Source of the DNA: a virus
Virus record (IMG/VR): IMGVR_UViG_3300025133_000024
Strand: one strand, 5' to 3'
DNA: 64,000 nucleotides
Shown here: piece after piece, positions 39,283 through 63,491 of the stretch
Numbering within the stretch: the stretch's first letter is position 1
How the letters are laid out: the number at the start of each line of letters is the position of its first letter
The notes under the pieces: generated by a model
Told to the model about the DNA's origin: nothing
Databases searched by the model: none
The model's input: the letters and a program-made list of their open reading frames with translations, nothing else
Position numbers and translations under genes: made by a program

Positions 39283-39311
39283 AATATGGGGATGAGTGAC
39301 AGAAAAGTCAA
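39283..39311 (-). promoter_or_regulatory. sigma70-type promoter
   Basis: TTGACT-17-CATATT + GAGGC/GCCTC leader hairpin. Confidence 0.65.
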
Positions 39312-39366
39312 GAGGCAGGGGGAAGAAAGTCAAGAAAACTTTCTGTGATGTTTGGCACGGCTTGTG

Positions 39367-39624
39367 CTAGATACAGCACATTCCCAGCAGGAACATGGCA
39401 TAGCCAAAGCCAGAGGTGAGAGTCACCGCACAAGCACAAGCCGCCAGACCTTCCTTGTGGCGAGCGAGCTTATGGGCAAGGAAGGTGAACGCGCCCACAA
39501 CATAGTACGCACAGCCAAAGAGAGCAACAGGAGCAACGGGGATAAGGGAGCCGGGACAAAGAGTGTTAGAGGTCAGGATAGTCAAGCAGAGAATAAGAGT
39601 CAAAATGGTGTGCCGAGCTTTCAT
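39367..39624 (-). CDS. small hydrophobic membrane protein
   Basis: AGGAG SD; mostly hydrophobic. Confidence 0.55.
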   Translation of the reverse strand: MKARHTILTLILCLTILTSNTLCPGSLIPVAPVALFGCAYYVVGAFTFLAHKLARHKEGLAACACAVTLTSGFGYAMFLLGMCCI

Positions 39625-39693
39625 GTTTTTTTCTCCTTATAGGGTATAGGGGGTCACTCAACCTATAACAAAGCAGAGCATTTACCTTAGTCC

Positions 39694-39717
39694 AACAACA
39701 AAGCCCCGCTAGGGGGC
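39694..39717 (-). terminator. putative intrinsic terminator (duplicated near 40078-40092)
   Basis: GCCCC-CTAGC-GGGGC then TTTGTTGTT. Confidence 0.5.
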
Positions 39718-39726
39718 TAGCTAGGG

Positions 39727-39999
39727 TTAGCGGGGGGCGGCGCTCATAAGCGGCCCCATTGCGTGGCGGCTATCATAATAAAAGCCCTTGGTCGCCTGGT
39801 GGATGAAGTAGGCGAGGGGTTTTTTGCCGTTAAAGGCATAGCGGGGGAAGATCCGGTCAAAAATGATAGGATAGTTGATATCGGCTTGTTTGTGTTGTTT
39901 TTGTTGTTTAAACATTGCTAGCTCCTTATAGGGTATAGAGTTGATGAGGTTCGTGAGGGGGGCGGCTGCTATCAATTTCAAAATTTCTTGAGCTTTCAT
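39727..39999 (-). CDS. hypothetical protein, paralogue of 40102-40359
   Basis: near-identical duplicate with SD. Confidence 0.7.
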   Translation of the reverse strand: MKAQEILKLIAAAPLTNLINSIPYKELAMFKQQKQHKQADINYPIIFDRIFPRYAFNGKKPLAYFIHQATKGFYYDSRHAMGPLMSAAPR

Positions 40000-40101
40000 G
40001 TTTTTTTCTCCTTATAGGGTATAGGGGGTCACTCAACCTATAACAAAGCAGAGCATTTACCTTAGTCCAACAACAAAGCCCCGCTAGGGGGCTAGCTAGG
40101 G

Positions 40102-40359
40102 TTAGCGGGGGGCGGCGCTCATAAGCGGCCACATTGCGTGGCGGCTATCATAATAAAAGCCTTTGACGGGGTTGTCCTTAGAGATCCGGTCAAAGGCATA
40201 GCGGGGAAAGATCCGGTCAAAAATGATAGGATAGTTGATAGCGGCTTGTTTGTGTTGTTTTTGTTGTTTAAACATTGCTAGCTCCGTATAGGGTATAGAG
40301 TTGATGAGGCTCGTGAGGGGGGCGGCTGCTATCAATTTCAAAATTTCTTGAGCTTTCAT
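40102..40359 (-). CDS. hypothetical protein, paralogue of 39727-39999
   Basis: near-identical duplicate with SD. Confidence 0.7.
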   Translation of the reverse strand: MKAQEILKLIAAAPLTSLINSIPYTELAMFKQQKQHKQAAINYPIIFDRIFPRYAFDRISKDNPVKGFYYDSRHAMWPLMSAAPR

Positions 40360-40400
40360 GTTTTTTTCTCCTATGGTGGGCTTGATTGCCCTGTAGATAT

Positions 40401-40429
40401 AATATGGGGATGAGTGACAGAAAAGTCAA
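40401..40429 (-). promoter_or_regulatory. sigma70-type promoter
   Basis: TTGACT-17-CATATT + GGGC-AATCAA-GCCC. Confidence 0.65.
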
Positions 40430-40455
40430 GAGGCAGGGGGAAGTTTTTTACATAT

Positions 40456-40701
40456 TTAGGAGTTGTAGATAATGTCGTCAAGAGCATGCGACGGGGCTTT
40501 GTCCATCCCCTGTTCTGCAAGCTTGCGAACCCAAGGAAGCTGCTTTGCAGACAAGGGGCGATATTTGGCATGAGTGAGCAGGGATTCTGCGAATCCCTGA
40601 GCAGAACGAGGAACCCAACGCTGGACTTTTGCCAGCGTTGTCAACCATCCTTTGCAGTTGTTGTCGTTCTCACAAAAGCAGTCACGTTGTTTGTCAGTCA
40701 T
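40456..40701 (-). CDS. hypothetical early protein
   Basis: own promoter; SLLTHAKYRPLSAKQ. Confidence 0.65.
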   Translation of the reverse strand: MTDKQRDCFCENDNNCKGWLTTLAKVQRWVPRSAQGFAESLLTHAKYRPLSAKQLPWVRKLAEQGMDKAPSHALDDIIYNS

Positions 40702-40746
40702 CTGGTTTCACCTGTTACAAGTGGGGCATCATTGCCCTGTAAATAC

Positions 40747-40775
40747 AAGATAGGTTCTGAGAAGTGGAATGTCAA
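40747..40775 (-). promoter_or_regulatory. sigma70-type promoter
   Basis: TTGACA-17-TATCTT. Confidence 0.75.
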
Positions 40776-40800
40776 GAGGTTTTTGAAAAAAGATGAATAA

Positions 40801-40863
40801 TTTTTCATTCCCCCTATTAGAAGAAAGCTTATAAAAAGCCTGTAGAATAGGGGGAATGAAAAA
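40801..40863. repeat. inverted repeat CCCTATT-N27-AATAGGG (inverted orientation)
   Basis: 18-bp perfect arms, 27-nt spacer. Confidence 0.85.
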
Positions 40864-40867
40864 TTGG

Positions 40868-41128
40868 TTAGGAGTTGTTGTTGCGGCGCTTGATAAGGAA
40901 CTGAGGCTTGTGCTTGTACAACTCGCCGCTAACCTGAAAAGTCCTGTCAGTGAGCAGAGCTGTACGAATCATAGACGGCTTGACCTTCCGGCGGAGGGAT
41001 TTGTACTGTTCGGAGTGATTCTGTCGGAGGTAGTTGTTAACGTTCCCCCGCACTTCACTGAGGAAACCTGACGGGGTTGTTTGTGCGATGGCGCGAATGA
41101 GGGCACGGGTGACGATGGCTTTGCTCAT
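40868..41128 (-). CDS. basic hypothetical early protein
   Basis: own promoter and AGGAG SD. Confidence 0.7.
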   Translation of the reverse strand: MSKAIVTRALIRAIAQTTPSGFLSEVRGNVNNYLRQNHSEQYKSLRRKVKPSMIRTALLTDRTFQVSGELYKHKPQFLIKRRNNNS

Positions 41129-41170
41129 GTGGTTTTTCTCCTATTGTGGGCTTTATTGCCCTGTAGATAT

Positions 41171-41199
41171 AACTTAGTAACTGAGGGATGGAATGTCAA
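41171..41199 (-). promoter_or_regulatory. sigma70-type promoter
   Basis: TTGACA-17-TAAGTT. Confidence 0.75.
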
Positions 41200-41217
41200 G
41201 GGTTATTTTGAGAAAGT

Positions 41218-41463
41218 TTAAAAATCATGCCTGCCCATTTGTTGTCTCTCCATTCGGCGCAGGTACTCATCGCTCATGTAGTAATCACCCGTATCATCAC
41301 ATTCGTCATAACACTTTCGACAAACCCAGTTGTATTTGGTTTCATACACATCTTTGCCTTCCAAACGGAAGCCGCAGCTCTCACAGGCTGCTTGTTGGGA
41401 GTTGCCTGTGAGAGCTGCCCATTTTTTCAGAAGCCAATTGTACTCTTCGTTTTTCGTTGGCAT
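41218..41463 (-). CDS. small zinc-finger protein
   Basis: CESC...CRKC. Confidence 0.7.
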   Translation of the reverse strand: MPTKNEEYNWLLKKWAALTGNSQQAACESCGFRLEGKDVYETKYNWVCRKCYDECDDTGDYYMSDEYLRRMERQQMGRHDF

Positions 41464-41507
41464 GTTTCTTTACCTCTTGTGTGTGGGCTTGATTGCCCTG
41501 TAGATAT

Positions 41508-41536
41508 AACTTAGTAACTGAGGTATGGAATGTCAA
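41508..41536 (-). promoter_or_regulatory. sigma70-type promoter
   Basis: TTGACA-17-TAAGTT. Confidence 0.75.
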
Positions 41537-41569
41537 GGGTTATTTTGAAAAAAAGGTGATTTTCTGTAA

Positions 41570-41614
41570 CTCCCTATTTTGCGACGTTTTTATGACGTTT
41601 CTTCTAATAGGGAG
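41570..41614. repeat. inverted repeat CTCCCTATT-N27-AATAGGGAG
   Basis: direct inspection. Confidence 0.85.
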
Positions 41615-41633: not shown

Positions 41634-41906
41634 CTAGAAGGGGTTGAGTTGATAGCCCAAATTGCAGATAAGGATTTCCAGAGCCTCGTCTTTTTCGGGA
41701 TAGATGTTAGAGGAGTGTCTTTCTAAGTCGTCAAGGGCAAGGCGGAGGGTGTCACCGTCGATACCGCCACCGGAAATCCAAGTGCTCCCGACACTGTAAA
41801 TGGGACACCATTGACCCCCATGATAGTGCATCAACTCTCTTGCTTGATTGTTGATGTCGTAGTAGAGATTGTTCTCAGGACACTTGCCGGTCAATTCGCA
41901 AATCAT
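41634..41906 (-). CDS. hypothetical early protein
   Basis: own promoter and SD; HGGQWCPIYSVGS. Confidence 0.7.
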   Translation of the reverse strand: MICELTGKCPENNLYYDINNQARELMHYHGGQWCPIYSVGSTWISGGGIDGDTLRLALDDLERHSSNIYPEKDEALEILICNLGYQLNPF

Positions 41907-41949
41907 CTTTTCACCTCTTTGGGAGTGGGCTTGATTGCCCGATGTTTAT

Positions 41950-41978
41950 AACTTAGTAACTGAGGGATGGAATGTCAA
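41950..41978 (-). promoter_or_regulatory. sigma70-type promoter
   Basis: TTGACA-17-TAAGTT. Confidence 0.75.
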
Positions 41979-41987
41979 GGGCGAAGG

Positions 41988-42209
41988 TTAAACTTTTTTC
42001 TTGTCCCAAAAGTGTATCAAAGCCAGTTCGATTTTCTTGTGAGTTTCCATGGCTCTATCATACAACCTGTTCAATTTTTTTCTTGTTCTTTGTTCCTCTG
42101 GTGTGAGTGTGTCTTTGTCCAATTCCTCTAGTTGGGTGTGTAACCCTCTTAAAACCTTTTCCGAAAAGTATTCTTGACTTTGAAGCTCATCAATTGTCAA
42201 CATTTTCAT
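41988..42209 (-). CDS. helical hypothetical early protein
   Basis: own promoter and SD. Confidence 0.7.
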   Translation of the reverse strand: MKMLTIDELQSQEYFSEKVLRGLHTQLEELDKDTLTPEEQRTRKKLNRLYDRAMETHKKIELALIHFWDKKKV

Positions 42210-42252
42210 GTGTCACCTATTCAAAGGGGAGGCATCATTGCCTCATGTGTAT

Positions 42253-42281
42253 AATCTAGTAACTGAGGTATGGAATGTCAA
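42253..42281 (-). promoter_or_regulatory. sigma70-type promoter
   Basis: TTGACA-17-TAGATT. Confidence 0.75.
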
Positions 42282-42312
42282 GGGTTATTTTGAGAAAAGA
42301 CTGTTTTTCTAT

Positions 42313-42361
42313 AACTCCCTATTCTACGTCATTTTTATGACGTTTTCTCTAATAGGGAGTT
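42313..42361. repeat. inverted repeat AACTCCCTATT-N27-AATAGGGAGTT
   Basis: nested inner ACGTCAT/ATGACGT. Confidence 0.85.
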
Positions 42362-42367: not shown

Positions 42368-42607
42368 TTATCGGGTCATGAGATAGACCTCGATTGCTCT
42401 GCTTTCGTCTTGACCTCGATAGAGTAAATTGTCCATGTTGTCTCTCACCTCCCATCGCACGGGGCACCCTCTCATTTGTCTGTGGAGTAGGGCATTAAGA
42501 GAACCTTGCTTCTCGTCTGTTTCTACAGGTACTCTGACGATATCCTTCCAGCAATTCAACATTCGGCTTCTCAGGTTCAGTCTCTTGAGTTTTTCCTCGA
42601 TTTTCAT
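42368..42607 (-). CDS. hypothetical early protein
   Basis: own promoter and SD. Confidence 0.7.
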   Translation of the reverse strand: MKIEEKLKRLNLRSRMLNCWKDIVRVPVETDEKQGSLNALLHRQMRGCPVRWEVRDNMDNLLYRGQDESRAIEVYLMTR

Positions 42608-42650
42608 TATTGCTTTCTCCTATTATTGGGCTTGATTGCCCTGTGAATTC

Positions 42651-42679
42651 AATATAGGTTCTGAGAAGTGGTTTGTCAA
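42651..42679 (-). promoter_or_regulatory. sigma70-type promoter
   Basis: TTGACA-17-TATATT. Confidence 0.8.
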
Positions 42680-42761
42680 GAGGTTTTTTGGAAAAAGTGC
42701 AAAAATAAAATTTGCGGATATAAGGGAGAAGTAATGACCTCTCGCCTTAGCGTACAATGAT

Positions 42762-42938
42762 TTATTTTTGCAAATCAGGTTGTTCTCTCAAGAGTTGATT
42801 TGTTGTTTGGGTTGGATTCATATCATCCATGAACGAATTCCAAAAATCAAATTCAATGTCATCGATATTGAAAGTCCCTTCTGTTCGGTTGTTCAGTTTT
42901 TCTTCTACTTTCTTAAGCCAGTTTTGAAACTCGTTCAT
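42762..42938 (-). CDS. 58-aa hypothetical early protein (below ORF-track cutoff)
   Basis: MNEFQNWLKKVEEKL...; AAGGA SD and own promoter. Confidence 0.65.
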   Translation of the reverse strand: MNEFQNWLKKVEEKLNNRTEGTFNIDDIEFDFWNSFMDDMNPTQTTNQLLREQPDLQK

Positions 42939-42961
42939 TGTTTTTTTCCTTCTGTGAATTC

Positions 42962-42990
42962 AAGGTAAGAATTCAAGTTTTGTTTGTCAA
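42962..42990 (-). promoter_or_regulatory. sigma70-type promoter
   Basis: TTGACA-17-TACCTT. Confidence 0.7.
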
Positions 42991-43023
42991 GACTGTTTTT
43001 GAAAAAAAGGTGATTTTCTGTAA

Positions 43024-43068
43024 CTCCCTATTTTGCTTGCTTTTTATAAGCTTTCTTCTAATAGGGAG
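43024..43068. repeat. inverted repeat CTCCCTATT-N27-AATAGGGAG
   Basis: direct inspection. Confidence 0.85.
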
Positions 43069-43303
43069 AATGATTTTTTTTGCTCCTTTTTGTTGTTAGA
43101 ATTTTGTTCTGTTTTGGTGGGTTGTGGCTGCTTGTTTTTGTCGTTTTTTTCGGATGATTCGGGCTTTATACCACATCCCTACACAAAAACTCCACATCGA
43201 TTTTTGCATTATTCCACATTATCTTTCTATTTTGTTCCTCTTTGGTTTTTGTTATTTGTTTGATTTTCTTTTGTGTTTGTGGGCTTGATTGCCCGATGAA
43301 TAT

Positions 43304-43332
43304 AACTTAGTAACTGAGGGATGGAATGTCAA
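43304..43332 (-). promoter_or_regulatory. sigma70-type promoter
   Basis: TTGACA-17-TAAGTT. Confidence 0.75.
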
Positions 43333-43407
43333 GGGATTGTTTCGTTTTTTCTTGTTTAAAAAGTCATTTGAAAACGAAACAACCGATGTTATGGGGGTTT
43401 TGTGGAA

Positions 43408-43632
43408 TTATTGTAAGAGTAGTATCATGTTACAATATAGTTCCACAATTTGATGTCTATCGTGAGATGTAAAGATATTGGAGTCATGTTTTGTAATTTG
43501 GAATAAGAGGGTATCAGTTAAGGAAAGGGAAAGATTGTTTTGAGTGTGTATGGTCTTAGGGTTTTTTCTTCTTTTGTTTCTGTTCAGACTTGCTCGGAGT
43601 TTTGCTTTCCATCTTTCCAATTTGGGAATCAT
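43408..43632 (-). CDS. basic hypothetical early protein
   Basis: GAGG SD before MIPKL. Confidence 0.5.
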   Translation of the reverse strand: MIPKLERWKAKLRASLNRNKRRKNPKTIHTQNNLSLSLTDTLLFQITKHDSNIFTSHDRHQIVELYCNMILLLQ

Positions 43633-43680
43633 TGTTTTTCCTCGCATGTTTTTGTTATTGGTGTCTTGTCTCATGTTTAT

Positions 43681-43709
43681 AACATGGTGACTGAGGTTAG
43701 GAATGTCAA
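43681..43709 (-). promoter_or_regulatory. sigma70-type promoter
   Basis: TTGACA-17-CATGTT. Confidence 0.6.
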
Positions 43710-43716
43710 GGGATGA

Positions 43717-43932
43717 TTAGAAGTTTTTTTTGCATAGGATGTAGGATGTGTGGAAAGAGATTCGATATATTACCCCATGTTGATTCTTGACAAAGATTTG
43801 TTCTTTTATTTTGTATAGTTTATGTTTTTGCATGTATTGAAAGGTGAAAGATGTTCTTCGAATATGTTTTGTGTGTGGGGATTGAAAAAGGAGAGTGCTA
43901 ATACAAGTTACCAGGAAAGCTTTTTTTGTCAT
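43717..43932 (-). CDS. hypothetical early protein
   Basis: leader shared with 44965-45183. Confidence 0.5.
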   Translation of the reverse strand: MTKKAFLVTCISTLLFQSPHTKHIRRTSFTFQYMQKHKLYKIKEQIFVKNQHGVIYRISFHTSYILCKKNF

Positions 43933-43974
43933 GTTTGCTCACAATGTTTTGTTATTGGTGACTGCCATGTGTTC

Positions 43975-44002
43975 AATATAAGCAGTCAAAGAGAGTTGTC
44001 AA
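43975..44002 (-). promoter_or_regulatory. sigma70-type promoter
   Basis: TTGACA-16-TATATT. Confidence 0.7.
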
Positions 44003-44159
44003 GAGGTTTTTGAATCTTTTTGGTGTTAGGGGTTGTGTTGGGTGTTGAAAATGGATTGTGGGGAATGTGAGAGAGGATTATTTTGATTTATTGTTGTTGA
44101 TGTGCGAGAAGCAATGTTTTGACAGCAACGGTGTAATTGGTTCATTGCCCGATGAATAC

Positions 44160-44188
44160 AGCTTGATAACTGTGAGAATGATTGTCAA
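44160..44188 (-). promoter_or_regulatory. promoter module with weak -10; no clear downstream ORF
   Basis: TTGACA-17-CAAGCT; homologous to 46671-46699. Confidence 0.45.
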
Positions 44189-44205
44189 GGTTTTTTACAA
44201 ATTAT

Positions 44206-44859
44206 TTAATGTTTTTTAAATGCAATTCCGAGTTGTCGTTCGAAAAGAAAGTTAGGTTTAAGGCATAGTTGGCAATCGGCGCAAACAATGCCTTGCGTTT
44301 GTTCAAGACAGGGGATGAAGGTAATTTGGGGGTATTCTTCGAAAGTGAAGGCTTTATTTTGATTTGGGAAGTCATCAACGACAATGGCAGGCGAGTAACC
44401 TTGCTCAAGAGCTTGTGGGATTTCCTCGGGATTTTGAATGGAAGCGAGAACATTGACTGCTGAGTTCCAGAAGTGGCGTGAAACATCCATCCAGGCATGT
44501 GTATAAGTCCAGGCGTAGGTTTTTTCTGGACTTCTTTTGATAAAGCGCGAAGCTGCGTTGGAAACCATCATCGCAGCCATGGGAGTTTTGCAATCGCCCA
44601 CAACATGCAAGCGAAGGTGTTGCCCGTTGGAACGAAGGTTATCAATCTCTACGGTCTCGCGGTGTGCGATGTCAGTGGAGCTTTTTGTTATGGATTTGTT
44701 GAGTCTATGAGTTGTGAATCCAGTAAACCCTTTCTCAGCGTAACAGCCATTGTTGTAGAAGGGACAAGAACTAGGGCAAGAAGTTTGGGATGCGTAGGTC
44801 GCGCTGACACGACCAGTTTTTCTGTTGTTGGATTGTTGAACTGCAATTGCTGGTTTCAT
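44206..44859 (-). CDS. Cys-rich phage protein (gp88/DUF7227-like)
   Basis: CPSSCPF..GCYA, LRLHVVGD, WTYTH, C..CADCQLC. Confidence 0.65.
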   Translation of the reverse strand: MKPAIAVQQSNNRKTGRVSATYASQTSCPSSCPFYNNGCYAEKGFTGFTTHRLNKSITKSSTDIAHRETVEIDNLRSNGQHLRLHVVGDCKTPMAAMMVSNAASRFIKRSPEKTYAWTYTHAWMDVSRHFWNSAVNVLASIQNPEEIPQALEQGYSPAIVVDDFPNQNKAFTFEEYPQITFIPCLEQTQGIVCADCQLCLKPNFLFERQLGIAFKKH

Positions 44860-44910
44860 TCTTTTTGTTCCTCTTTGGTTTTTGTTATTGGTGTCTTGTT
44901 TCGTATAACC

Positions 44911-44938
44911 AACATAAGCAGTATTGAGAGAATGTCAA
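44911..44938 (-). promoter_or_regulatory. sigma70-type promoter
   Basis: TTGACA-16-TATGTT. Confidence 0.7.
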
Positions 44939-44964
44939 GGTTTGTTTGGAAGTTTTTTTATTTT

Positions 44965-45183
44965 TTATTCTGGGAAGGAGTCAAATATTTGCGTCAAGTA
45001 ATACGTTTCAGTCTTATAACAAAAGCTGAACATATGAGCGATATTGTTTATGTAAGTCGGATATAGGATGGATGGTTTCAAGCCTATGACTCTAACCAAG
45101 AAAAACAACAATTTCTTATGTTGGAGTTTCAGCCCATTTTCTTTTGCAAAAATCAAAAGCTCTTTCAATCTCATCTTGTGCAT
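44965..45183 (-). CDS. 72-aa hypothetical protein, paralogue of 46726-46944
   Basis: differences between copies mostly synonymous. Confidence 0.7.
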   Translation of the reverse strand: MHKMRLKELLIFAKENGLKLQHKKLLFFLVRVIGLKPSILYPTYINNIAHMFSFCYKTETYYLTQIFDSFPE

Positions 45184-45226
45184 GTTTGCCTCGCAATGTT
45201 TTGTTATTGGTGACTGCCATGTGTTC

Positions 45227-45254
45227 AATATAAGCAGTCAAAGAAGGATGTCAA
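45227..45254 (-). promoter_or_regulatory. sigma70-type promoter
   Basis: TTGACA-16-TATATT. Confidence 0.7.
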
Positions 45255-45339
45255 GAGGTTTTTGAAAGTTTTTGATATGTGGGGTTGTGTTGGGTGTTGA
45301 AAATGGATTGAGGGGGATGTGAGAGGGAATAAAAATGTT

Positions 45340-45993
45340 TTATTGTTGTTGATGTGCGAGAAGCAAGGTTTTGATGGTAATGGTGTAGATGTCAATGTCG
45401 GTTTGAGAGTAACCGTTGTCGAGGCCAATTTGTTGACCTTGTTTCTCCCATTCATCCCATGTTAGGGATTGACAGCCAATGATAACCTTGTCATCTGTGA
45501 TGGTTATTTGGTGTTTGTGGAGTTTTGCGGTTAGTGGGGATTTTGTGACATAGGAGTTGTTTGTGACAGTGGAGTTGTTTATGACATAGGAGTTTATGAC
45601 ATTGGAGTTTATGACATAGGAGCTGTTTGTGACATTGGAGTTTATGACATTGGAGTTGTTTGTGACAGTGGAGTTGTTTGTGACATTGGAGTTGTTTGTG
45701 ACATTGGAGTTGTTTATGACATTGGAGTTTATGACATAGGAGTTGTTTGTGACATTGGAGTTGTTTATGACATTGGAGTTTATGACATTGGAGTTGTTTG
45801 TGACAGTGGAGTTGTTTGTGACATTGGAGTTGTTGAAAACGTGTGATGTGTCATCAATCCAGCTTCCATCTTGAGAAAGGGTCGATGTGTCATCAATCCA
45901 ACCACCGATTTTGTTGTCGGATATTCTTTTGATTTGATGGAGTGTGAAGCCGTTCCATTCTTTTGTTTCTCCGGTGAACGTCCAATATTGCAT
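45340..45993 (-). CDS. hexa/pentapeptide-repeat beta-helix phage protein
   Basis: LHQIKRISDNKIGGWID then about 17 (N)NSxV[TI] repeats. Confidence 0.8.
   Translation of the reverse strand: MQYWTFTGETKEWNGFTLHQIKRISDNKIGGWIDDTSTLSQDGSWIDDTSHVFNNSNVTNNSTVTNNSNVINSNVINNSNVTNNSYVINSNVINNSNVTNNSNVTNNSTVTNNSNVINSNVTNSSYVINSNVINSYVINNSTVTNNSYVTKSPLTAKLHKHQITITDDKVIIGCQSLTWDEWEKQGQQIGLDNGYSQTDIDIYTITIKTLLLAHQQQ
45540..45837. repeat. 15/18-bp coding minisatellite
   Basis: tgacattggagtt(gtttg|ta) units. Confidence 0.9.
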
Positions 45994-46041
45994 GTTTTGT
46001 TTCCTCTTGTTTTTGTTATCGGTGTCTTGCTTTGTATAACC

Positions 46042-46069
46042 AACATAAGCAGTATTGAGAGAATGTCAA
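46042..46069 (-). promoter_or_regulatory. sigma70-type promoter
   Basis: TTGACA-16-TATGTT; module near-identical to 44870-44960. Confidence 0.7.
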
Positions 46070-46115
46070 GGTTTGTTTGGAAGTTTTTTTATTTTTGCTG
46101 TGGAGGTTTTTGTTA

Positions 46116-46622
46116 TTAGTAGTGTCGGATGATTTGGAGTATAAAGCGTTCATCCCACTTGCCACGATTATATTGATTGCAGCATTGATTACAAGCTTTT
46201 CTGCCTGTTTTCCATTGTTTGCCCATTCTGGAAAAGTGGAATTGATAATTGCATGTTTGGCAAACAGCAGAGTACTTATAACCCATTGTTGCCGGTGTCA
46301 AAAGATGTCTGTATTCTTCTACATTTGCGCATCTTTCAGGTTTTGCGCCCACCAACAGAGCATATTCTTGCCACTCCAAGTCATGACCCGCGTGAAATCC
46401 AGCCAGAGCGTGTGCTACCTCATGTAAGCTAGTGTTTTCCATGACTTCCATCGGAAGAACAGACGCAAACAAAATCGACAATTCAATCTGGCGTGTTCGA
46501 AAATGTGTTAATCCAAGTGCAGTCGTCCTTTTATTCCAGTGAAAGCTCCAGCCTTCACTCTTACACAGGTATTCCGCAATGTGACTTTCTACCATTCTTT
46601 GAATTTCCAGAGTTTTGCTCAT
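46116..46622 (-). CDS. SprT-like zinc metalloprotease
   Basis: LGLT..R..IELS, HEVAHAL, GHDLEW, CQTC. Confidence 0.9.
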   Translation of the reverse strand: MSKTLEIQRMVESHIAEYLCKSEGWSFHWNKRTTALGLTHFRTRQIELSILFASVLPMEVMENTSLHEVAHALAGFHAGHDLEWQEYALLVGAKPERCANVEEYRHLLTPATMGYKYSAVCQTCNYQFHFSRMGKQWKTGRKACNQCCNQYNRGKWDERFILQIIRHY

Positions 46623-46670
46623 GTTTTGTTTCCTCTTGTTTTTGTTATGGACTTGTTGTCCGATGAATAC

Positions 46671-46699
46671 AACTTGATAACTGTGAGAATGATTGTCAA
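46671..46699 (-). promoter_or_regulatory. promoter module with weak -10
   Basis: TTGACA-17-CAAGTT. Confidence 0.5.
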
Positions 46700-46725
46700 G
46701 GTTTATTTGGAAGTTTTTTTATTTT

Positions 46726-46944
46726 TTATTCTGGAAAGGAGTCAAATATTTGTGTCAAGTAATATGTTTCAGTCTCATAACAAAAGCTGAACATATGAGC
46801 GACCTTATTGATATACGTTGGATACAAGATGGATGGCTTCAAGCCAATGATTCGAACCAAAAAAAACAGCAACTTCTTATGTTGGAGTTTCAGCCCATTT
46901 TCTTTCGCAAAAATCAAAAGCTCTTTCAATCTCATCTTGTGCAT
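46726..46944 (-). CDS. 72-aa hypothetical protein, paralogue of 44965-45183
   Basis: near-identical protein. Confidence 0.7.
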   Translation of the reverse strand: MHKMRLKELLIFAKENGLKLQHKKLLFFLVRIIGLKPSILYPTYINKVAHMFSFCYETETYYLTQIFDSFPE

Positions 46945-46987
46945 GTTTGCCTCGCAATGTTTTGTTATTGGTGACTGCCATGTGTTC

Positions 46988-47015
46988 AATATAAGCAGTC
47001 AAAGAAGGATGTCAA
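46988..47015 (-). promoter_or_regulatory. sigma70-type promoter
   Basis: TTGACA-16-TATATT. Confidence 0.7.
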
Positions 47016-47143
47016 GAGGTTTTTGAAAGTTTTTGATATGTGGGGTTGTGTTGGGTGTTGTGTTGGGTGTTGAAAATGGATTGAGGGGGATGTGAGAGGG
47101 AATAAAAATTGTTTTATTTGGAGGGTTTATGCAAACGAAGAAA

Positions 47144-47172
47144 GCCCCATGAGACAAAGCTTCTCATGGGGC
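47144..47172 (-). terminator. intrinsic terminator
   Basis: GCCCCATGAGA-7nt-TCTCATGGGGC + T-rich tail. Confidence 0.8.
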
Positions 47173-47266: not shown

Positions 47267-47929
47267 TTATTTGTCGTAAAGAGTACCAAAAGTCTCGAAA
47301 GGAGTAGTTGCGGTGATACAGGCGACGCACACATATTCATCGGAGTTGTTTTTGTTTTCGGCTTTCCAGACATTGGAAGAGACTTCCGTCCAAGCGGTCA
47401 ACTCGATGTCTTTGTAGCGGCGCTCCGCGTTCTTTTTGAGTTGTTGGATGCGAACATCCTTTTGCTCTTGTTGTTGTTGAGAGAGATAGGTACGGACGGC
47501 GCTTTCTTTGATTTCTTTCCCATCCTCTTGTTGCGGGAATTGTTCATTGATAGCTTCGGTGAGAAGCGGGATGTTCCAGGATTTATTTTCGGTGGTTTCG
47601 CCTTTGTCGTTTTCGGTGACGGGGGGTGTTTGGCTCAGGAGGGTTGCGACGTAGGCTTTGTGTTCATCCGAGAAGTTGCTGGTACGGCCACGGTGTTTGG
47701 ATTCGAGAGCGGCGTAACCTTCTTCTTCAAACTTCTTTTTGAGGCTGTAGACCGTGTTCATCTGAACACCGTTGTGAAAAGCGACAGCGAGGGCCTTTTG
47801 ACCTTCCGCCAGTTCGAGGAGGATTTTGGCACGGGTTCGTTTTTTCGGGTGGTTTCCTTCGTCGTTCATGATTTGGGTGAGAGTGTCGATTTGAGTCTGG
47901 GTCAGGTCGAATTGGCTTTTCTTGCTCAT
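47267..47929 (-). CDS. HTH protein resembling IS630 transposase N-terminus (no DDE domain)
   Basis: RAKILL..AEG...TVY..KKKFEEEG..AL...RGR..F......L...P...SW....L. Confidence 0.7.
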   Translation of the reverse strand: MSKKSQFDLTQTQIDTLTQIMNDEGNHPKKRTRAKILLELAEGQKALAVAFHNGVQMNTVYSLKKKFEEEGYAALESKHRGRTSNFSDEHKAYVATLLSQTPPVTENDKGETTENKSWNIPLLTEAINEQFPQQEDGKEIKESAVRTYLSQQQQEQKDVRIQQLKKNAERRYKDIELTAWTEVSSNVWKAENKNNSDEYVCVACITATTPFETFGTLYDK

Positions 47930-47981
47930 GGTTTTTCTATCCTATGGTCTTTGTTGTTGGGCTTTATTGCCCGATGAATTC

Positions 47982-48010
47982 AAGATAAGAATTCAAGTTT
48001 TGTTTGTCAA
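47982..48010 (-). promoter_or_regulatory. sigma70-type promoter
   Basis: TTGACA-17-TATCTT + GGGC-AATAAA-GCCC. Confidence 0.75.
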
Positions 48011-48076
48011 CTCTTTTTCAAAACTTTTTTCAAGTTTTTTTGAGTTGCTGAGACTTGTTGTCTCTGTTGTGGTTGC

Positions 48077-48105
48077 AAGATGGTAACTGTGAGAGTGATT
48101 GTCAA
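48077..48105 (-). promoter_or_regulatory. sigma70-type promoter (tandem upstream)
   Basis: TTGACA-17-CATCTT. Confidence 0.55.
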
Positions 48106-48118
48106 GAGTTTTTGTGAA

Positions 48119-48613
48119 TTATTTTTCTTTTTTATATGATTCCAGGAAAGTTTGGAGTTCATCAAGTTTGACAGGGTTGTTCGTTCTATAATGGATATTG
48201 ACAAAAGAATACATGCCATGTTCATCAATGATAACAGGGATTTCCATTTCCACAGCCAACTCTCGTCGTTTCTCACTCAAAAATCTGTTCACATCCACAA
48301 CTTCAGCCCGTGTAAGTTCCTCCGTTGCATCAACAAACCATGGCCCCCAAAATTGAGAACCCACTTGTGTTCCATGAACAGCAATCAGGGCTTGTCCTGA
48401 CAATTGAGTATAGAGGAACAGAATTTTGTTTGGGGGAAGAGTGGAAAAGAATACTGACAAATTCTCTGCTTGTTTTTTGGTTAGAGTGTTGCTTCGGAGC
48501 CAATTAGAATAATAAAAAGATTTGAGGAGTTGGTCTCTTTCTTGTCTTCTCATACGAGATATGTAAAACGATTCAGTGTCAAAAAACAAGTCAATAATTT
48601 GATTGTAAGTCAT
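48119..48613 (-). CDS. protein with distant similarity to AAA ATPase C-terminal domain
   Basis: LTKKQAENLSVFFSTLPPNKILFLYTQL. Confidence 0.6.
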   Translation of the reverse strand: MTYNQIIDLFFDTESFYISRMRRQERDQLLKSFYYSNWLRSNTLTKKQAENLSVFFSTLPPNKILFLYTQLSGQALIAVHGTQVGSQFWGPWFVDATEELTRAEVVDVNRFLSEKRRELAVEMEIPVIIDEHGMYSFVNIHYRTNNPVKLDELQTFLESYKKEK

Positions 48614-48677
48614 CTGTTTTTCCTTTTCCCAAAATTGTTTGGGCGTTTTTGTTTTGGACTTGTTGTCCGATGTGTTC

Positions 48678-48705
48678 AATATAAGCAGTGTTGAATGAAT
48701 GTCAA
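48678..48705 (-). promoter_or_regulatory. sigma70-type promoter
   Basis: TTGACA-16-TATATT. Confidence 0.7.
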
Positions 48706-48724
48706 GGGTTTTTCGTTTTTTATT

Positions 48725-49123
48725 TTACAGATTTTCTAGAGCTTTCATTACAACCCCTTCTTCGTATTTATTTATAATGTCAGCAATTGCAACACCTGGA
48801 GGTTTTTTAGAAGTTGGCATGTTTTTACCATACAATAATTTGAGGTTGCGATAATCGGTATCTTTTGGAACAAGGGCCGAGAACAAGCCAACAAAATGAA
48901 AATCAGGCAATTGTTCCCAAAAAATTTTAAGGTTATCCATTTGCTCAGAGGTGAGTTGTTGGTTCAAAAGATTGGAGTTTTTGAAGCCGTCGTACACAGC
49001 CATGACATAAGCTTCAGGTGTCATGGCAAGTGGTCTTTCTGGACCTTCTTTCAATACCTTTTTTGCAAAAAGATAATTTGAGACACTTGCTTGGCCTTGC
49101 TCTTGTTTATCGATTTTTGACAT
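48725..49123 (-). CDS. stand-alone paralogue of AAA ATPase C-terminal domain
   Basis: FKNS.LL..QLT.EQMDNL..FWEQLP...KDTDYRNLKLLYGK. Confidence 0.8.
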   Translation of the reverse strand: MSKIDKQEQGQASVSNYLFAKKVLKEGPERPLAMTPEAYVMAVYDGFKNSNLLNQQLTSEQMDNLKIFWEQLPDFHFVGLFSALVPKDTDYRNLKLLYGKNMPTSKKPPGVAIADIINKYEEGVVMKALENL

Positions 49124-49154
49124 TTTTGTTTCCTCGGTTTATTATTGTGATATG

Positions 49155-49183
49155 AACATAAGCACTGAGAGTTGTTGTGTCAA
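49155..49183 (-). promoter_or_regulatory. sigma70-type promoter
   Basis: TTGACA-17-TATGTT. Confidence 0.75.
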
Positions 49184-49211
49184 GAGCCTTGTTAACTTAT
49201 TTTTCGTTTTT

Positions 49212-52059: not shown

Positions 52060-52102
52060 TTTTGCCTCAAATGTTTTTGTTAAAAGCTATGACCATAGGT
52101 GC

Positions 52103-60549: not shown

Positions 60550-61701
60550 TTAGCTTTCGTCATCTTCGCCTTGAAGTTCCTTAAGCTTCTCAGTGAGTTC
60601 ATCTTGGTCAAAGCCACTCACAATGTCAGCCATCCAAATACCAGACCATTTGTTGGCTTTGGGATATTTCTTGCCGTGCCACAGTTTGATGTTGTGGTAA
60701 CCGGTATCTTTCGCGGCCAAAGAAGTGAACAGAAGGATGGCATTTTCGGGGGGCAAGTATTCCCAATACTCCATCAAGTTGCCCATTTCAGCATCACTCA
60801 AGTCTTTCGCAAGATGAGAGCCATTTTTGAACTTGTTGAGAATGCTGTTATGCTCGTTCAATTCCATCGTCGGATAACGGTCACGACGCTCACCAGCGAG
60901 AACTTGAGCAGGACTAACTTCGTATTCCAAAGTCTCTGCATAATTTCTCAGAGCGATTGCAGCCTCCTCACCAACGAAACCAGCAGCCAAGCTGTAAAGC
61001 TGGAGGGTTGTCTCTTTCGTGAAGAAACCAGCACGGTCAGCACACTCGGAAAGACGGAACCAAGAACGACGGGAAGGATAGATTTTGCTCGGGTCATAAG
61101 TGCCCTTGTGCTCAAGATGCTCAAAGTGCCCCGCAATGAAGTCCCAAACGGTTTGGTGAACTTTACCAGCAGCGTATTGAAGCCAATCATCCACGGACGG
61201 CTCCACATCCACAATCCACCAACGGTCACTCTCGGCAGGGTCCATTTCGCTCACTTGGTAATGGGGTGCGTTCTTCCCACCATTCACAGCAGCGAAAATC
61301 TTGGTTCCAGGGTGAAGGACTTGACCGAAAATCTTGCGAGAATCAGCCAGTTCGAAGAAACCTTGACGAACCTCAGGGATTGCGCGGTCCAATTCATCCA
61401 TGAAGAGAACAACGGGCTTGGAACAAGCTTCGTAAAACCAATCCGGCGGGTTGAAAGAGGTGGTTTTCTTTTTCTCGTTCATTCGAGGCAGACCAATCAA
61501 GTCACCCTCGGTCATCTGTGAAGCACGACGCTCAACCACCGGAAGACCAAGGTCTCTGGCGATTTGATAAACGACTTCCGATTTGCCGACGCCGTGGGCA
61601 CCACGAATCAAAACCGGAAAACCTTCAGGGTCTTTCTTTTTGGAGGTGATTTTGGGGCCGATGATTCCGGCTGCAACGATACGAAAAGTTTGAAAATCCA
61701 T
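60550..61701 (-). CDS. MoxR/dynein-related AAA+ ATPase
   Basis: GAHGVGKS Walker A, LFMDELDRA Walker B, AAVN, DPAESDR, SRRSW. Confidence 0.9.
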   Translation of the reverse strand: MDFQTFRIVAAGIIGPKITSKKKDPEGFPVLIRGAHGVGKSEVVYQIARDLGLPVVERRASQMTEGDLIGLPRMNEKKKTTSFNPPDWFYEACSKPVVLFMDELDRAIPEVRQGFFELADSRKIFGQVLHPGTKIFAAVNGGKNAPHYQVSEMDPAESDRWWIVDVEPSVDDWLQYAAGKVHQTVWDFIAGHFEHLEHKGTYDPSKIYPSRRSWFRLSECADRAGFFTKETTLQLYSLAAGFVGEEAAIALRNYAETLEYEVSPAQVLAGERRDRYPTMELNEHNSILNKFKNGSHLAKDLSDAEMGNLMEYWEYLPPENAILLFTSLAAKDTGYHNIKLWHGKKYPKANKWSGIWMADIVSGFDQDELTEKLKELQGEDDES

Positions 61702-61781
61702 GAATAAGCTCCTTATCATGAAATAAATATTGCCATAGTGGCAGGGGATGGGCGAAATGCCCGGTGAATCAATCTAGAAAC

Positions 61782-61810
61782 AAGTTAGTAACGAGAGGTT
61801 TGTTTGTCAA
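61782..61810 (-). promoter_or_regulatory. sigma70-type promoter for AAA ATPase
   Basis: TTGACA-17-TAACTT + GGGC-ATTTC-GCCC. Confidence 0.75.
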
Positions 61811-62056
61811 GGGTCATCACTAATTTTTTTTTCAATTTTTTTTCTCTCCTTAGGTTTATTCTGAGTCTTTTGACATCATAATTGTGCCACCAACTATCAT
61901 GGCGCTCTTGCTGAAGTTGCATAGTAAAAACGTTCAACAAAAGTGCTGGTGAGGTGCGTGATGGGTTGTGTTCACATTGTAACAAAAGTAACTTTGTTTT
62001 TTTCCAATAACAAGTTCACCATATTTTACTTGTTTTGTGTGAATGTAATTTTTCAT
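61785..62056 (-). pseudogene. frameshifted small ORF
   Basis: MKNYIH..KYGELVIGK; continues in -1 frame after A7 run. Confidence 0.4.
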
Positions 62057-62099
62057 TCTCTAGTGTCCTCCTTTCAAGGTTTTCTTCGCTTGTATTCTC

Positions 62100-62128
62100 A
62101 ATATGGTCACTCGATGTTCTGTTGTCAA
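62100..62128 (-). promoter_or_regulatory. sigma70-type promoter
   Basis: TTGACA-17-CATATT. Confidence 0.6.
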
Positions 62129-62150
62129 CCCCTTTCAAAGTTTTTTTTGA

Positions 62151-62225
62151 CACACCCGATAGGATTTGAACCTATGACAAATGAATTAGAAAACCGATGC
62201 TCTATCCTGACTGAGCTACGAGTGC
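62151..62225 (-). tRNA. tRNA-Arg(TCT)-like gene with unpaired anticodon stem (possible pseudo-tRNA)
   Basis: acceptor, D and T arms pair; anticodon stem TCGGT/TTCAT has 1 WC + 1 GU pair. Confidence 0.6.
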
Positions 62226-62236
62226 TTTCATTAACC

Positions 62237-62264
62237 AATATAAGCATCAATCAGTCAATGTCAA
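62237..62264 (-). promoter_or_regulatory. sigma70-type promoter for tRNA-like gene
   Basis: TTGACA-16-TATATT. Confidence 0.7.
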
Positions 62265-62278
62265 GAGCTTGGAGGGAA

Positions 62279-62479
62279 TTATTTTTTCTTTTTTTTATTG
62301 TAAGTTCCTAAGAGTTTTATAGAGGGATGACAATACACATCTGGGGATTCTATAGAAAGCCCTGTTAAACTTTTAGAAACATAAAGAACGATGTATTGTC
62401 CATCCTTAGTGCCCAATATTAAATCACAAAACCTATCCATTTTAATTAAGTCACCTTTTGAACGCTTTAGTTTAGACAT
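62279..62479 (-). CDS. small KG[DE]L family protein
   Basis: SKGDLI...LGTY. Confidence 0.6.
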   Translation of the reverse strand: MSKLKRSKGDLIKMDRFCDLILGTKDGQYIVLYVSKSLTGLSIESPDVYCHPSIKLLGTYNKKKKK

Positions 62480-62813
62480 TTTTTCTTGGTCTCCCTCTTT
62501 TCTTTTTCATATTCCAAGGAACTTCTTTGTTGTTTCTATCAATATAAAAAGTTTTATAAGGAAACTTTCTCACCCAATGTTTGGCTTCTTTGGCATCTTC
62601 AAAAGATTTTTCATATAAAAATTTATCTTCGCCGGTTGAACCTGAACAATAGGTTTCTCCACAATCTGACCAACCTTCTTCTTCCAAAACTCTCCTCACT
62701 GTTCTAACAACTCGACCATCAAAGCCACACACTTCAAAGCGAAATCTGGTCTCATCGCGATTCTTGGCTTCACCCATTTGCCAAATATAACAAACACCGT
62801 TTTTATCAGACAT
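62472..62813 (-). CDS. hypothetical protein with C-terminal AT-hook
   Basis: KKRGRPRK; start trimmed to MSDKNG. Confidence 0.7.
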   Translation of the reverse strand: MSDKNGVCYIWQMGEAKNRDETRFRFEVCGFDGRVVRTVRRVLEEEGWSDCGETYCSGSTGEDKFLYEKSFEDAKEAKHWVRKFPYKTFYIDRNNKEVPWNMKKKRGRPRKNV

Positions 62814-63018
62814 CTTCTTTCTCCTCTGTGTTATTGTATATACACATCTTTTCTCTACACTGATGAACATAAACACCATCATACATGAACAAATGACGAA
62901 TATATTTATCACCAATTCTAAGCATATTATAACTCTTATTATCAGGATTGTGTGATATTACTAATTCTATTGCCTCAGCAAATCTATATAAATTTCCTTT
63001 TCTATTTTTCAACTTCAT
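62806..63018 (-). CDS. small KG[DE]L family protein
   Basis: RKGNLY. Confidence 0.6.
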   Translation of the reverse strand: MKLKNRKGNLYRFAEAIELVISHNPDNKSYNMLRIGDKYIRHLFMYDGVYVHQCREKMCIYNNTEEKEDV

Positions 63019-63217
63019 TCTCATCCTCATCTTCATACTGTAAATGTTGACCAACTCCAGAACCATCCAACCAAAACCTTAAAATCTCTTTTTCGTCGGT
63101 CCAAGAACCCATTGAAACCCTTTTAAAATAGGATATATTAAAAATTCTGGAATCTCCGATGTAAAGGCTAATTAGAAATCTATTTTTTCGTAAAAATAAC
63201 TCACCCTTCTTTATCAT
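63002..63217 (-). CDS. small KG[DE]L...LxY family protein
   Basis: KKGELF...LQYEDED. Confidence 0.65.
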   Translation of the reverse strand: MIKKGELFLRKNRFLISLYIGDSRIFNISYFKRVSMGSWTDEKEILRFWLDGSGVGQHLQYEDEDENEVEK

Positions 63218-63383
63218 CTTCATCCTCATACTGTAAAACTAATTTACTCGATTTCACATAATAACTTAAATTAACCCAAGGATGCAAAACGAGGATGTTC
63301 CCACCAAAGGATAAAGTTATGTTGTCATCCAAACACAGTTCAAAAAGATTTTTGTTTGGAAAAAATATCAATTGACCTTTCAT
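63201..63383 (-). CDS. small KG[DE]L...LxY family protein
   Basis: MKGQLI...LQYEDED. Confidence 0.65.
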   Translation of the reverse strand: MKGQLIFFPNKNLFELCLDDNITLSFGGNILVLHPWVNLSYYVKSSKLVLQYEDEDDKEG

Positions 63384-63462
63384 TTCATGTTTCCTTGCAA
63401 CCTTTTTATTATGATGAAAGAGTGAGACCCTCTCAGAGACACCAGTGAGGCATCACATGAGC

Positions 63463-63491
63463 AATATAAGTCAGGCGAAGGGCAATGTCAA
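63463..63491 (-). promoter_or_regulatory. sigma70-type promoter
   Basis: TTGACA-17-TATATT. Confidence 0.8.

Follow-up and report, generated by a model that had tools for sequence, protein, structure and literature searches.

The window analysed here is a 64,000-nucleotide stretch of viral DNA (IMG/VR record IMGVR_UViG_3300025133_000024), and it contains an array of promoter–leader modules between 39.2 and 51 kb, where every gene lies on the minus strand. Twenty-four modules in this array are near-consensus sigma-70 sequences (TTGAC[AT], spacer of 16–17 nt, TAnnTT or CAnnTT, with 25 nt of A-rich sequence upstream) and are predicted to be promoters. A unit opens with an A-rich, UP-like tract and C(C/T)(C/T)TTGACA, runs through the 16–17-nt spacer and TAnnTT to 8–9 nt ending in CA(T/C), and closes with either a short GC hairpin or a structureless A/C-rich leader, followed by AGGAG, GAGG or AAGG and then ATG. 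The ATG lies 35–46 nt from the predicted transcript start, placed seven bases past the −10 box, on the A of the conserved CA(T/C), and the intervening leader is A/C-rich and G-poor. A Shine–Dalgarno (SD) sequence, mostly AGGAG, GAGG or AAGG and weaker in a few cases, precedes the ATG by 5–9 nt in 21/24 modules. Only four clear intrinsic terminators were found in the array (47144..47172 on the minus strand, 40077-40093, 39702-39718 and 39114-39147).

The pattern TTGACW-N16/17-TANNNT matched 29 times in the window, compared with 5.8 ± 2.4 matches (largest 12) in dinucleotide shuffles, and 25/29 were minus-strand matches located from 39.5 to 63.5 kb. Modules were recounted by scoring every TTGAC[ATC] for its best −10 box, which added CATATT, CAAGTT and CATCTT variants; with the −10 box relaxed in this way there were 31 intergenic minus-strand modules, 24 of them with a −35 box between 39311 and 50924. 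A first-pass annotation of this DNA had counted 31 minus-strand modules, 24 within 39.3–51 kb, and the recount gave exactly the same figures.

In 13 modules the leader carries a hairpin with a GC stem of 4–6 bp and an AAY loop, beginning 8–9 nt after the −10 box, at +3/+4 of the predicted transcript (+7 in module 48105). The predicted free energies (ΔG) of these 13 hairpins range from −5.2 to −8.8 kcal/mol, with z from −2.7 to −8.6 against shuffles. The motif of a 4-bp GC-rich stem and an AAY loop occurred 11 times on the minus strand and 0 times on the plus strand (block shuffles: mean 0.7, maximum 3), with 10/11 placed 8–9 nt after a −10 box; three AACAA-loop hairpins escaped the motif's regular expression and are additional to its 11. 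The stem-varying leader hairpins described in the first-pass annotation are present; over the 13 modules, stems were GGGC/GCCC in eight modules, GAGGC/GCCUC (core (G)AGGC/GCCU(C)) in two, GGAC/GUCC in two and GAGAC/GUCUC in one, with both-sided changes between them. Two of the four stem pairs vary on both sides and one-sided breaks were seen in 0/13 (pairs were counted by hand, since MAFFT misaligned the hairpins with 5-nt loops). The copies are paralogues, so these changes represent perhaps two or three independent compensatory events. Decayed versions of the hairpin occur in modules 49940 and 44188. A further hairpin cited with the others, GGGC-ATTTC-GCCC in module 61810, is real but sits 17 nt after its −10 box, unlike the set at 8–9 nt. 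Rfam returned only three matches at gathering score in the window, all tRNAs, and nothing credible at E≤5 in 39–51.2 kb.

Self-comparison and a table of shared segments showed that upstream tract, promoter, hairpin-leader and distal leader are combined variously before about 20 coding sequences; only five paralogue pairs were found among 24 cargo proteins. That near-identical modules precede unrelated genes, as the first-pass annotation had stated, holds for the repeat pairs it quoted: 44863-44965 and 45995-46096 (94% identity over 104 nt), 43926-44135 and 45176-45387 (88% over 212 nt), and 39237-39285 and 42207-42255 (96% over 49 nt). Module 39311 is an exact chimera, its promoter matching that of 40429 at 46/46 positions and its leader that of 42281 at 47/49, and in module 48705 a promoter of the 49940 type is combined with the distal leader found in 50924. 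The 48010/42990 promoter type was found both with and without a hairpin. A 17-nt spacer is identical or differs by one mismatch in five modules, and sharing of bases without known function points to recent conversion rather than convergence. Three modules (48105, 44188 and 43332) are cargo-less; the SD region of 43332 is 92% like that of gene 44859. The units of the array appear, on these patterns, to recombine with one another. The earlier proposal of a shuffling cassette system is upheld in that the array consists of self-contained cassettes like the promoter(early)–stem-loop (PeSL) elements of T4-type phages, with chimeras, duplications, cargo-less modules and a gene remnant; it departs from the published PeSLs in the position of the stem-loop. 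Coordinates are collected in Table 1.

Table 1. Modules, upstream stem-loops and duplicated units in and near the array (positions in the window; aa, amino acids; ORF, open reading frame; HTH, helix-turn-helix; LbH, left-handed beta-helix).
Feature	Position	Strand	Description
Module 50924	50843..50949	-	TTGACA-17-TATGTT; leader hairpin CCCAAA/UUUGGG just 5′ of SD; ATG of 302-aa LbH-like gene
Module 49940	49862..49965	-	TTGACA-16-TATATT; degenerate hairpin GGACAAUGAACCC; SD; ATG of 139-aa gene
Module 49183	49121..49208	-	Promoter; short leader without structure; ATG of 132-aa gene
Module 48705 (chimera)	48611..48730	-	49940-like promoter (91%); hairpin GGAC-AACAA-GUCC; 50924-like distal leader (93%); 164-aa gene
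Module 48105 (cargo-less)	48037..48130	-	Promoter and hairpin GAGAC-AACAA-GUCUC; next promoter directly after
Module 48010	47927..48036	-	Promoter; hairpin GGGC-AAUAAA-GCCC; ATG of 220-aa HTH-only protein
Module 47015	46942..47040	-	Promoter; GGCAGUCACC leader without stable hairpin; ATG of 72-aa gene (copy 1)
Module 46699	46620..46724	-	CAAGTT −10 box; hairpin GGAC-AACAA-GUCC; ATG of SprT-like 168-aa gene
Module 46069	45991..46094	-	Promoter; A/C-rich leader; ATG of 217-aa LbH-like repeat protein; 94% identity to module 44938
Module 45254	45181..45279	-	Duplicate of module 47015; ATG of 72-aa gene copy 2 (94% aa identity)
Module 44938	44857..44963	-	Same module as 46069; unrelated DUF7227/GP88 217-aa gene behind it
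Module 44188 (cargo-less)	44092..44213	-	Promoter; decayed hairpin; then last ~45 nt of LbH-like gene (deletion remnant)
Module 44002	43930..44027	-	Third 47015-type copy; unrelated 71-aa gene
Module 43709	43630..43734	-	CATGTT promoter; non-pairing GAGACAAGACACC leader; ATG of 74-aa gene
Module 43332 (effectively cargo-less)	43215..43357	-	Hairpin GGGC-AAUCAA-GCCC; long leader; then only a 17-codon ORF
Module 42990	42936..43015	-	48010 promoter (90%) without hairpin; 17-nt leader; 58-aa gene
Module 42679	42605..42704	-	TATATT promoter; hairpin GGGC-AAUCAA-GCCC; 79-aa gene
Module 42281	42207..42306	-	Promoter; hairpin GAGGC-AAUGAU-GCCUC; 73-aa gene
Module 41978	41904..42003	-	Promoter; hairpin GGGC-AAUCAA-GCCC; 90-aa gene
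Module 41536	41461..41561	-	Promoter; hairpin GGGC-AAUCAA-GCCC; 81-aa gene
Module 41199	41126..41224	-	96% identity to 41536 over 71 nt; hairpin GGGC-AAUAAA-GCCC; unrelated 86-aa gene
Module 40775	40699..40800	-	Promoter; hairpin GGGC(A)-AUGA-(U)GCCC; 81-aa gene
Module 40429	40357..40454	-	TTGACT-17-CATATT; hairpin GGGC-AAUCAA-GCCC; 85-aa gene (MKAQ copy 1)
Module 39311 (chimera)	39238..39336	-	40429 promoter and 42281 leader; 28-codon membrane-peptide ORF
Outlying module 52130	52057..52155	-	TTGACA-16-TATATT; without hairpin; 76-aa gene
Outlying module 61810	61699..61835	-	Precedes MoxR-type ATPase gene; hairpin GGGC-AUUUC-GCCC 17 nt after −10 box
Outlying module 63491	63381..63516	-	Different 5′ hairpin, −7.0 kcal/mol
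Large stem-loop, classical PeSL position	40801..40863		Upstream of promoter 40775; 20-bp stem, −32.6 kcal/mol
Stem-loop CUCCCUAUU...AAUAGGGAG	41570..41614	-	Upstream of promoter 41536
Stem-loop, same family	42313..42361	-	CUCCCUAUU...AAUAGGGAG family; upstream of promoter 42281
Stem-loop, same family	43024..43068	-	CUCCCUAUU...AAUAGGGAG family; upstream of promoter 42990
~500-bp unit, copy A	44863..45344	-	[Module – 72-aa gene – module]; 88% identity to 46624-47118; unrelated genes flank
~500-bp unit, copy B	46624..47118	-	88% identity to copy A
Tandem duplication	39615..40372	-	[Leader – MKAQ gene – terminator]; 398 nt, 91%; one 375-bp unit absent from contig L019

The genes starting at 40359, 39999 and 39624 (39367-40359) have in common a terminator, a leader of 70 nt that lacks a promoter, and their initial 10 coding bases (ATGAAAGCTC). 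A large stem-loop directly upstream of the promoter occurs at only four modules (40775, 41536, 42281 and 42990; −16 to −33 kcal/mol); in all four a U-run begins about 15 nt past the stem, and the position is that seen in PeSLs.

The cargo is almost entirely orphan. No Pfam match was obtained for 15/20 scanned cargo proteins, and those that could be named are an HTH-only IS630-like protein, an SprT-like protein, a DUF7227/GP88 protein and two LbH-like repeat proteins; the same 20 include no integrase or recombinase. Nine of ten cargo proteins looked up were present in a collection of 15 billion proteins, eight as singleton clusters and one in a two-member cluster. No family match points to host takeover or anti-defence, and the functions of that kind first suggested for the cargo are unsupported. 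The HTH-only gene of the array (47267-47929), with the region's strongest terminator behind it, encodes a 220-aa protein consisting solely of IS630-type transposase N-terminal HTH domains (HTH_32/29/23) without a catalytic domain, possibly a regulator or a transposase remnant. The LbH/antifreeze-like paralogues at 45340-45993 and 49937-50845 share 35% identity, and in the first, about 15 tandem DNA repeats of 15/18 nt code for units of the NSNVTNN type; of a third LbH-like copy only a 3′ remnant is left (44092-44135).

The region 39300-48000 forms a compositional island: its GC content is 40–45%, against about 32% for the phage, and its coding strand has C>G and A>T. GC content at third codon positions (GC3) is 0.35–0.69 for cargo genes in 39.3–48 kb, against about 0.2–0.35 in most other genes of the window, and 0.29–0.69 over the whole array; the MoxR ATPase gene (60550-61701; GC 0.49, GC3 0.51) is a second high-GC gene and an exception to the low-GC3 remainder. 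Module types are common to both sides of the GC3 boundary, which fits foreign genes placed behind resident modules, or modules spread by conversion. A tRNA array was considered as the source of the shift in GC and skew and was rejected, there being only three tRNA genes, all outside the array. Five to six tandem 42-bp units (ACAGCAAAATTTTTCCAAGGTTTTGAAAAGGACAAAAATATA), some of them 100% identical, occupy 38763-39034, exactly at the downstream limit of both the array and the high-GC island, and the same repeat ends the natural variant L019 described below; it could be an iteron or origin, an injection-stop-like signal or a recombination boundary.

In T4-type phages, PeSLs combine an AT-rich tract and a sigma-70 promoter with a stem-loop, an SD and an ATG; these composites cluster between ORFans, and their recombination yields indels, chimeric elements and mini-circles (PMC2839356, PMC4122927). 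There is a close resemblance to the PeSLs of RB49 and phi1 (Arbiol et al. 2010, PMC2839356): like these, the array has dense direct repeats of ~100 bp between small ORFans, each joining an AT-rich tract and a near-perfect TTGACA-17-TATAAT promoter to an A/C-rich leader with an AGGAG-type SD and an ATG, and repeats that serve as sites of homologous recombination, giving insertions, deletions and chimeric elements. The 26 RB49 upstream regions read here had a UP/−35/−10 layout, an A/C-rich leader, AGGAGAATCAA-ATG, and G(n)/C(n) stems inside the promoter. In RB49 and phi1 the stem-loop terminates upstream transcription and is placed either in the spacer from −35 to −10 or across the −10 box itself (PMC2839356), whereas the hairpin of the window follows the −10 box within the transcript and has 4–6 bp, an AAY loop and no U-tract; it cannot be the PeSL terminator. 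In the PST and nt-1 PeSLs the stem-loop is just upstream of the promoter (PMC4122927), as in four modules of the window, and the degraded or ‘half’ elements beside indels in the PeSLs and promoter(middle)–stem-loops (PmSLs) of PST/T4 and nt-1/KVP40 (Comeau et al. 2014, PMC4122927) resemble the cargo-less modules; unlike those phages, most modules of the window lack an upstream stem-loop, and no Mot-box variants were seen. No T4 core genes were found within the window, TATAAATA late-promoter motifs were not enriched in it, and PD-(D/E)XK nuclease matches were uninformative on T4-likeness. Set beside the RB49 elements, the array appears to fit a PeSL in every architectural feature but one: its conserved hairpin differs in place and in presumed job. 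It is a positional variant of PeSL-type cassettes, with the hairpin moved into the mRNA leader, and no new kind of system.

Other known systems match in part. The orphan block (‘ORFanage’) of cyanophage S-PM2 is likewise contiguous, dispensable and loss-prone in a marine myovirus, but promoters and stem-loops are scarce in it, and acquisition of its ORFs through PeSLs was considered unlikely by those who described it (Puxty et al. 2015, PMC4503421). Integron cassette arrays have a site-specific integrase, attC-type recombination sites and cassettes without promoters; each cassette of the window has its own promoter, and no integrase was found among the 20 scanned cargo proteins. In phAPEC8 (NC_020079), the first 14 upstream regions read had a −10 box, ~10 nt, a GC hairpin, an SD and a tiny gene; the order of parts, the hairpin at the predicted 5′ end and its CAAUGG, ACAA or CAA loops are alike, whereas stems are longer and different (GCGGC.../GGGGCG...), the host is enterobacterial, and there is no sequence or protein similarity to the phage of the window. 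The annotated PHIRE ‘promoters’ of phAPEC8 (contig L146) at 556-575, 937-956, 1787-1806 and 3202-3221 coincide with these leader hairpins (GGGCGGCAAUGGUGCCGC); each 20-mer follows a sigma-70 −10 box at a distance of about 10 nt and is not itself a promoter. The ompA 5′ untranslated region (5′UTR) and the T7 phi10 leader are mRNA stabilisers with a 5′-terminal stem-loop. Both resemble the window in having a hairpin a few nt from the 5′ end, then an unstructured leader and an SD; their loops are not known to be conserved, unlike the constrained loop of the window-type hairpin, which in other phages is also found inside operons.

The same hairpin recurs in uncultured phages. The pattern promoter-N9-GGGCAATNANGCCC was matched in four IMG/VR contigs and 12 non-self JGI contigs of 41–61% GC, nearly always with an SD and ATG 8–37 nt past the hairpin and before orphan genes; a loop-swapped control (TTANTN) gave 0 IMG/VR matches against the 4 of the real pattern. 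A scan for hairpin, AGGA and ATG, with no promoter demanded, found at least 120 viral contigs of 33–72% GC. A recurrent layout among the matches listed was TTGACx-N3-GGGCC-NNN-GGNCC-TATATT-N9-GGGCAATGAAGCCC-SD-ATG, in which an RB49-like spacer hairpin accompanies the leader hairpin. These GGGC-AAYNRN-GCCC elements share with the window the identical 14-nt hairpin, its 9-nt offset from the −10 box and a distance of 5–12 nt to the SD; they differ in that many carry the spacer hairpin and some are promoter-less, and they share no proteins with the array. Across the whole window, the only cargo held in common with hairpin-bearing contigs was a MoxR ATPase and VWA proteins, with contig L029. Arrays of 2–5 units were found in contigs L033, L085, L129, L140, L034, L070 and L089 (coordinates L085:2250-3010, L140:5110-5450, L129:6500-7970 and L033:230-10740), and many arrays of the L085/L140/L129/L033 type add a hairpin of 5 bp with a 3-nt loop between the −35 and −10 boxes. 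In L033, an array of an unrelated phage, stems were GGGC/GCCC, AGGC/GCCU and GGGC/GCCU, the second again altered on both sides and the last a G-U intermediate. Again among the matches listed, a terminase related to those of Ochrobactrum phage vB_OspP_OH, Rhodoferax phage P26218 and Pelagibacter phage HTVC010P accompanied at least 18 loci, and an XRE-type HTH protein of 60–70 aa at least 23. The latter is encoded at the operon end in the arrays of other contigs, an acr-aca-like arrangement; no homologue was found in the window (best E 0.011). The motif is absent from the cultured phage vB_OspP_OH, the nearest cultured relative of the podovirus-like contigs, and a literature search by string did not find the 14-mer hairpin sequences.

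One natural variant of the array was recovered. Contig L019 (1,769 bp, from a different sample, found by the pattern scan of JGI metagenomes) carries its own single-nucleotide polymorphisms and is 97–99% identical to window positions 41044-38901, from which it differs by exactly one 375-bp repeat unit, having the MKAQ gene once rather than twice. The first-pass annotation had held that a gene order fixed across relatives would speak against shuffling; gene content does differ by one cassette in L019, in a single event on a short contig.

The best explanation of these observations, and a fairly probable one, is that the minus strand of 39.2–51 kb is a hyperplastic early-gene block built of self-contained, PeSL-type cassettes, with a hairpin that acts at the RNA level and homologous recombination between cassettes. 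Host RNA polymerase would initiate at each module soon after infection. The hairpin would form at the 5′ end of the message, where it may shield the mRNA from 5′-end-dependent decay (RppH/RNase E, or RNase J) and insulate the ribosome site against whatever cargo is plugged in, and the G-poor leader would leave that site open for any downstream gene; the constrained loop suggests an additional reader of the hairpin. Direct repeats of 60–140 bp would recombine homologously, which would maintain near-identity through concerted evolution and produce chimeric modules, and the same recombination could duplicate or delete single genes and set one module before compositionally foreign genes. Cassettes may also be exchanged between genomes.

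Several points weigh against this explanation. Promoters, early timing and transcription start sites are predictions from sequence, and the hairpin must be dispensable for expression, as about ten modules of the array do without it. Protection from RppH/RNase E would be borderline with three unpaired 5′ nucleotides. Loops start with AAY in 19/28 non-selected GGGC-N6-GCCC + SD hairpins among the matches listed (about 3.5 expected), a constraint on loop sequence that a generic stabiliser does not predict, and some copies in other phages lack a promoter and follow a terminator-like GGGGCUUCGGCCCC or a bare stop codon. As to recombination, the gene remnant at 44188 reflects an illegitimate deletion, not a crossover between modules; the junction of the L019 indel is the repeated terminator-leader-ATGAAAGCTC segment rather than a sigma-70 module, and repeat collapse during assembly could also yield this difference. 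Neither megablast of 39–51 kb against 50,697 phage records (INPHARED), which gave no match, nor protein-seeded and exact-module scans of IMG/VR, which gave nothing close, provided a close relative in which gene order could be compared.

The constrained loop and the promoter-less copies make a specific reader of the hairpin a serious alternative. The leader hairpin might mainly be a protein-binding RNA site (a translational operator, a boxB/nut-like antitermination site or a processing signal) and a single phage or host factor acting through it would then control all the early genes at once; the stem-loops of Aca2/acr 5′UTRs and boxB/nut, hairpins read by proteins, would be analogues. The excess of AAY loops, the failure of the loop-swapped control, the recurrence of one 14-mer across contigs of 35–72% GC and the frequent company of the small XRE-type HTH protein all favour such a site, as does the position of the hairpin in other phages, 5–12 nt upstream of the SD even where there is no promoter, including between cistrons. 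It remains a doubtful possibility, since no homologue of the XRE protein was found in the window, no candidate RNA-binding protein came to light, the hairpin is missing from ten modules of the same array, and with its 4 bp it is small and without an Rfam match. That the inverted repeat is instead a DNA operator (+3 to +17), through which a dimeric repressor of the phage shuts all early promoters together, would account for a palindrome-like site of 14 bp that covers the start site of 13 promoters in an unvarying position, and for the second palindrome (GGGCC-N3-GGNCC) between −35 and −10 boxes and the XRE HTH in the same operon of podovirus-like contigs. An operator, however, predicts conserved arms around a free centre, the opposite of what is found: the arms co-vary (GGGC/GCCC, AGGC/GCCT, GGAC/GTCC, GAGAC/GTCTC) about a conserved centre, as fits RNA pairing, the motif is strand-specific (11 to 0), and in other phages it also stands between cistrons, far from promoters. 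On these grounds an operator is decidedly improbable.

The cassette reading itself has to be set against a simpler history, in which a foreign island of higher GC arrived once with its own promoters and then underwent local tandem duplication and deletion, with no module-mediated exchange between genomes. The compositional island at 39.3–48 kb is bounded by the 42-bp tandem repeat, the duplications, single indel and remnants that are documented are without exception local, and the cargo proteins are singletons even in the 15-billion-protein collection, so that no donor or recipient is visible. Such a history is nevertheless rather unlikely: identical segments stand before unrelated genes whose GC3 differs widely and are found on both sides of the island boundary (for example 48010/42990 and 49940/48705/46069), the chimeric modules require crossovers inside modules, and the range of cargo GC3 (0.29–0.69) fits several acquisitions better than one. 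A last candidate, that the hairpins terminate antisense (plus-strand) transcription, drew on the few hairpins that are T-rich afterwards on the plus strand and were caught by the terminator scan; it was rejected as scarcely credible in view of the short stems (4–6 bp), the weak T-runs, the lack of plus-strand genes in the array and the presence of only one strong plus-strand promoter-like site.

If the array is a set of PeSL-type cassettes, the idea that repeated cassettes both express and shuffle orphan genes would reach beyond a few T4-type phages in culture and apply to a marine phage that is uncultured, with the stem-loop placed differently, in the mRNA leader. Stem covariation, the constrained loop and recurrence in at least 120 unrelated viral contigs make a role of the 5′ hairpin in early expression testable. 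It may be, though the suggestion is a tentative one, that the GGGC-AAYNRN-GCCC leader hairpin is a distinct and hitherto undescribed RNA element of phage early genes, its loop read by a common host or phage factor across unrelated lineages; these would be a large marine phage, HTVC010P/P26218-like podoviruses and contigs of 35–72% GC, among others. Were this so, the hairpin would travel with promoter and ribosome site, making the unit a portable expression plug that phages exchange or have repeatedly re-invented. The modules, with promoter, insulating hairpin, unstructured leader and SD, would also be compact natural parts for the expression of arbitrary genes.

Two further features of the window lie outside the array. 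A 232-aa protein encoded at 25562-26260 has a sub-threshold match to ATLF (anthrax lethal factor N/C-terminal domain family) over residues 179-222 (E 1e-5, 25.8 bits against a cut-off of 27.4). A tRNA-like gene at 62151-62225 has its own consensus promoter (62264) and scores 48.9 bits against the Rfam tRNA model; its anticodon loop is non-canonical, and ARAGORN reported an undetermined two-base anticodon (tc).

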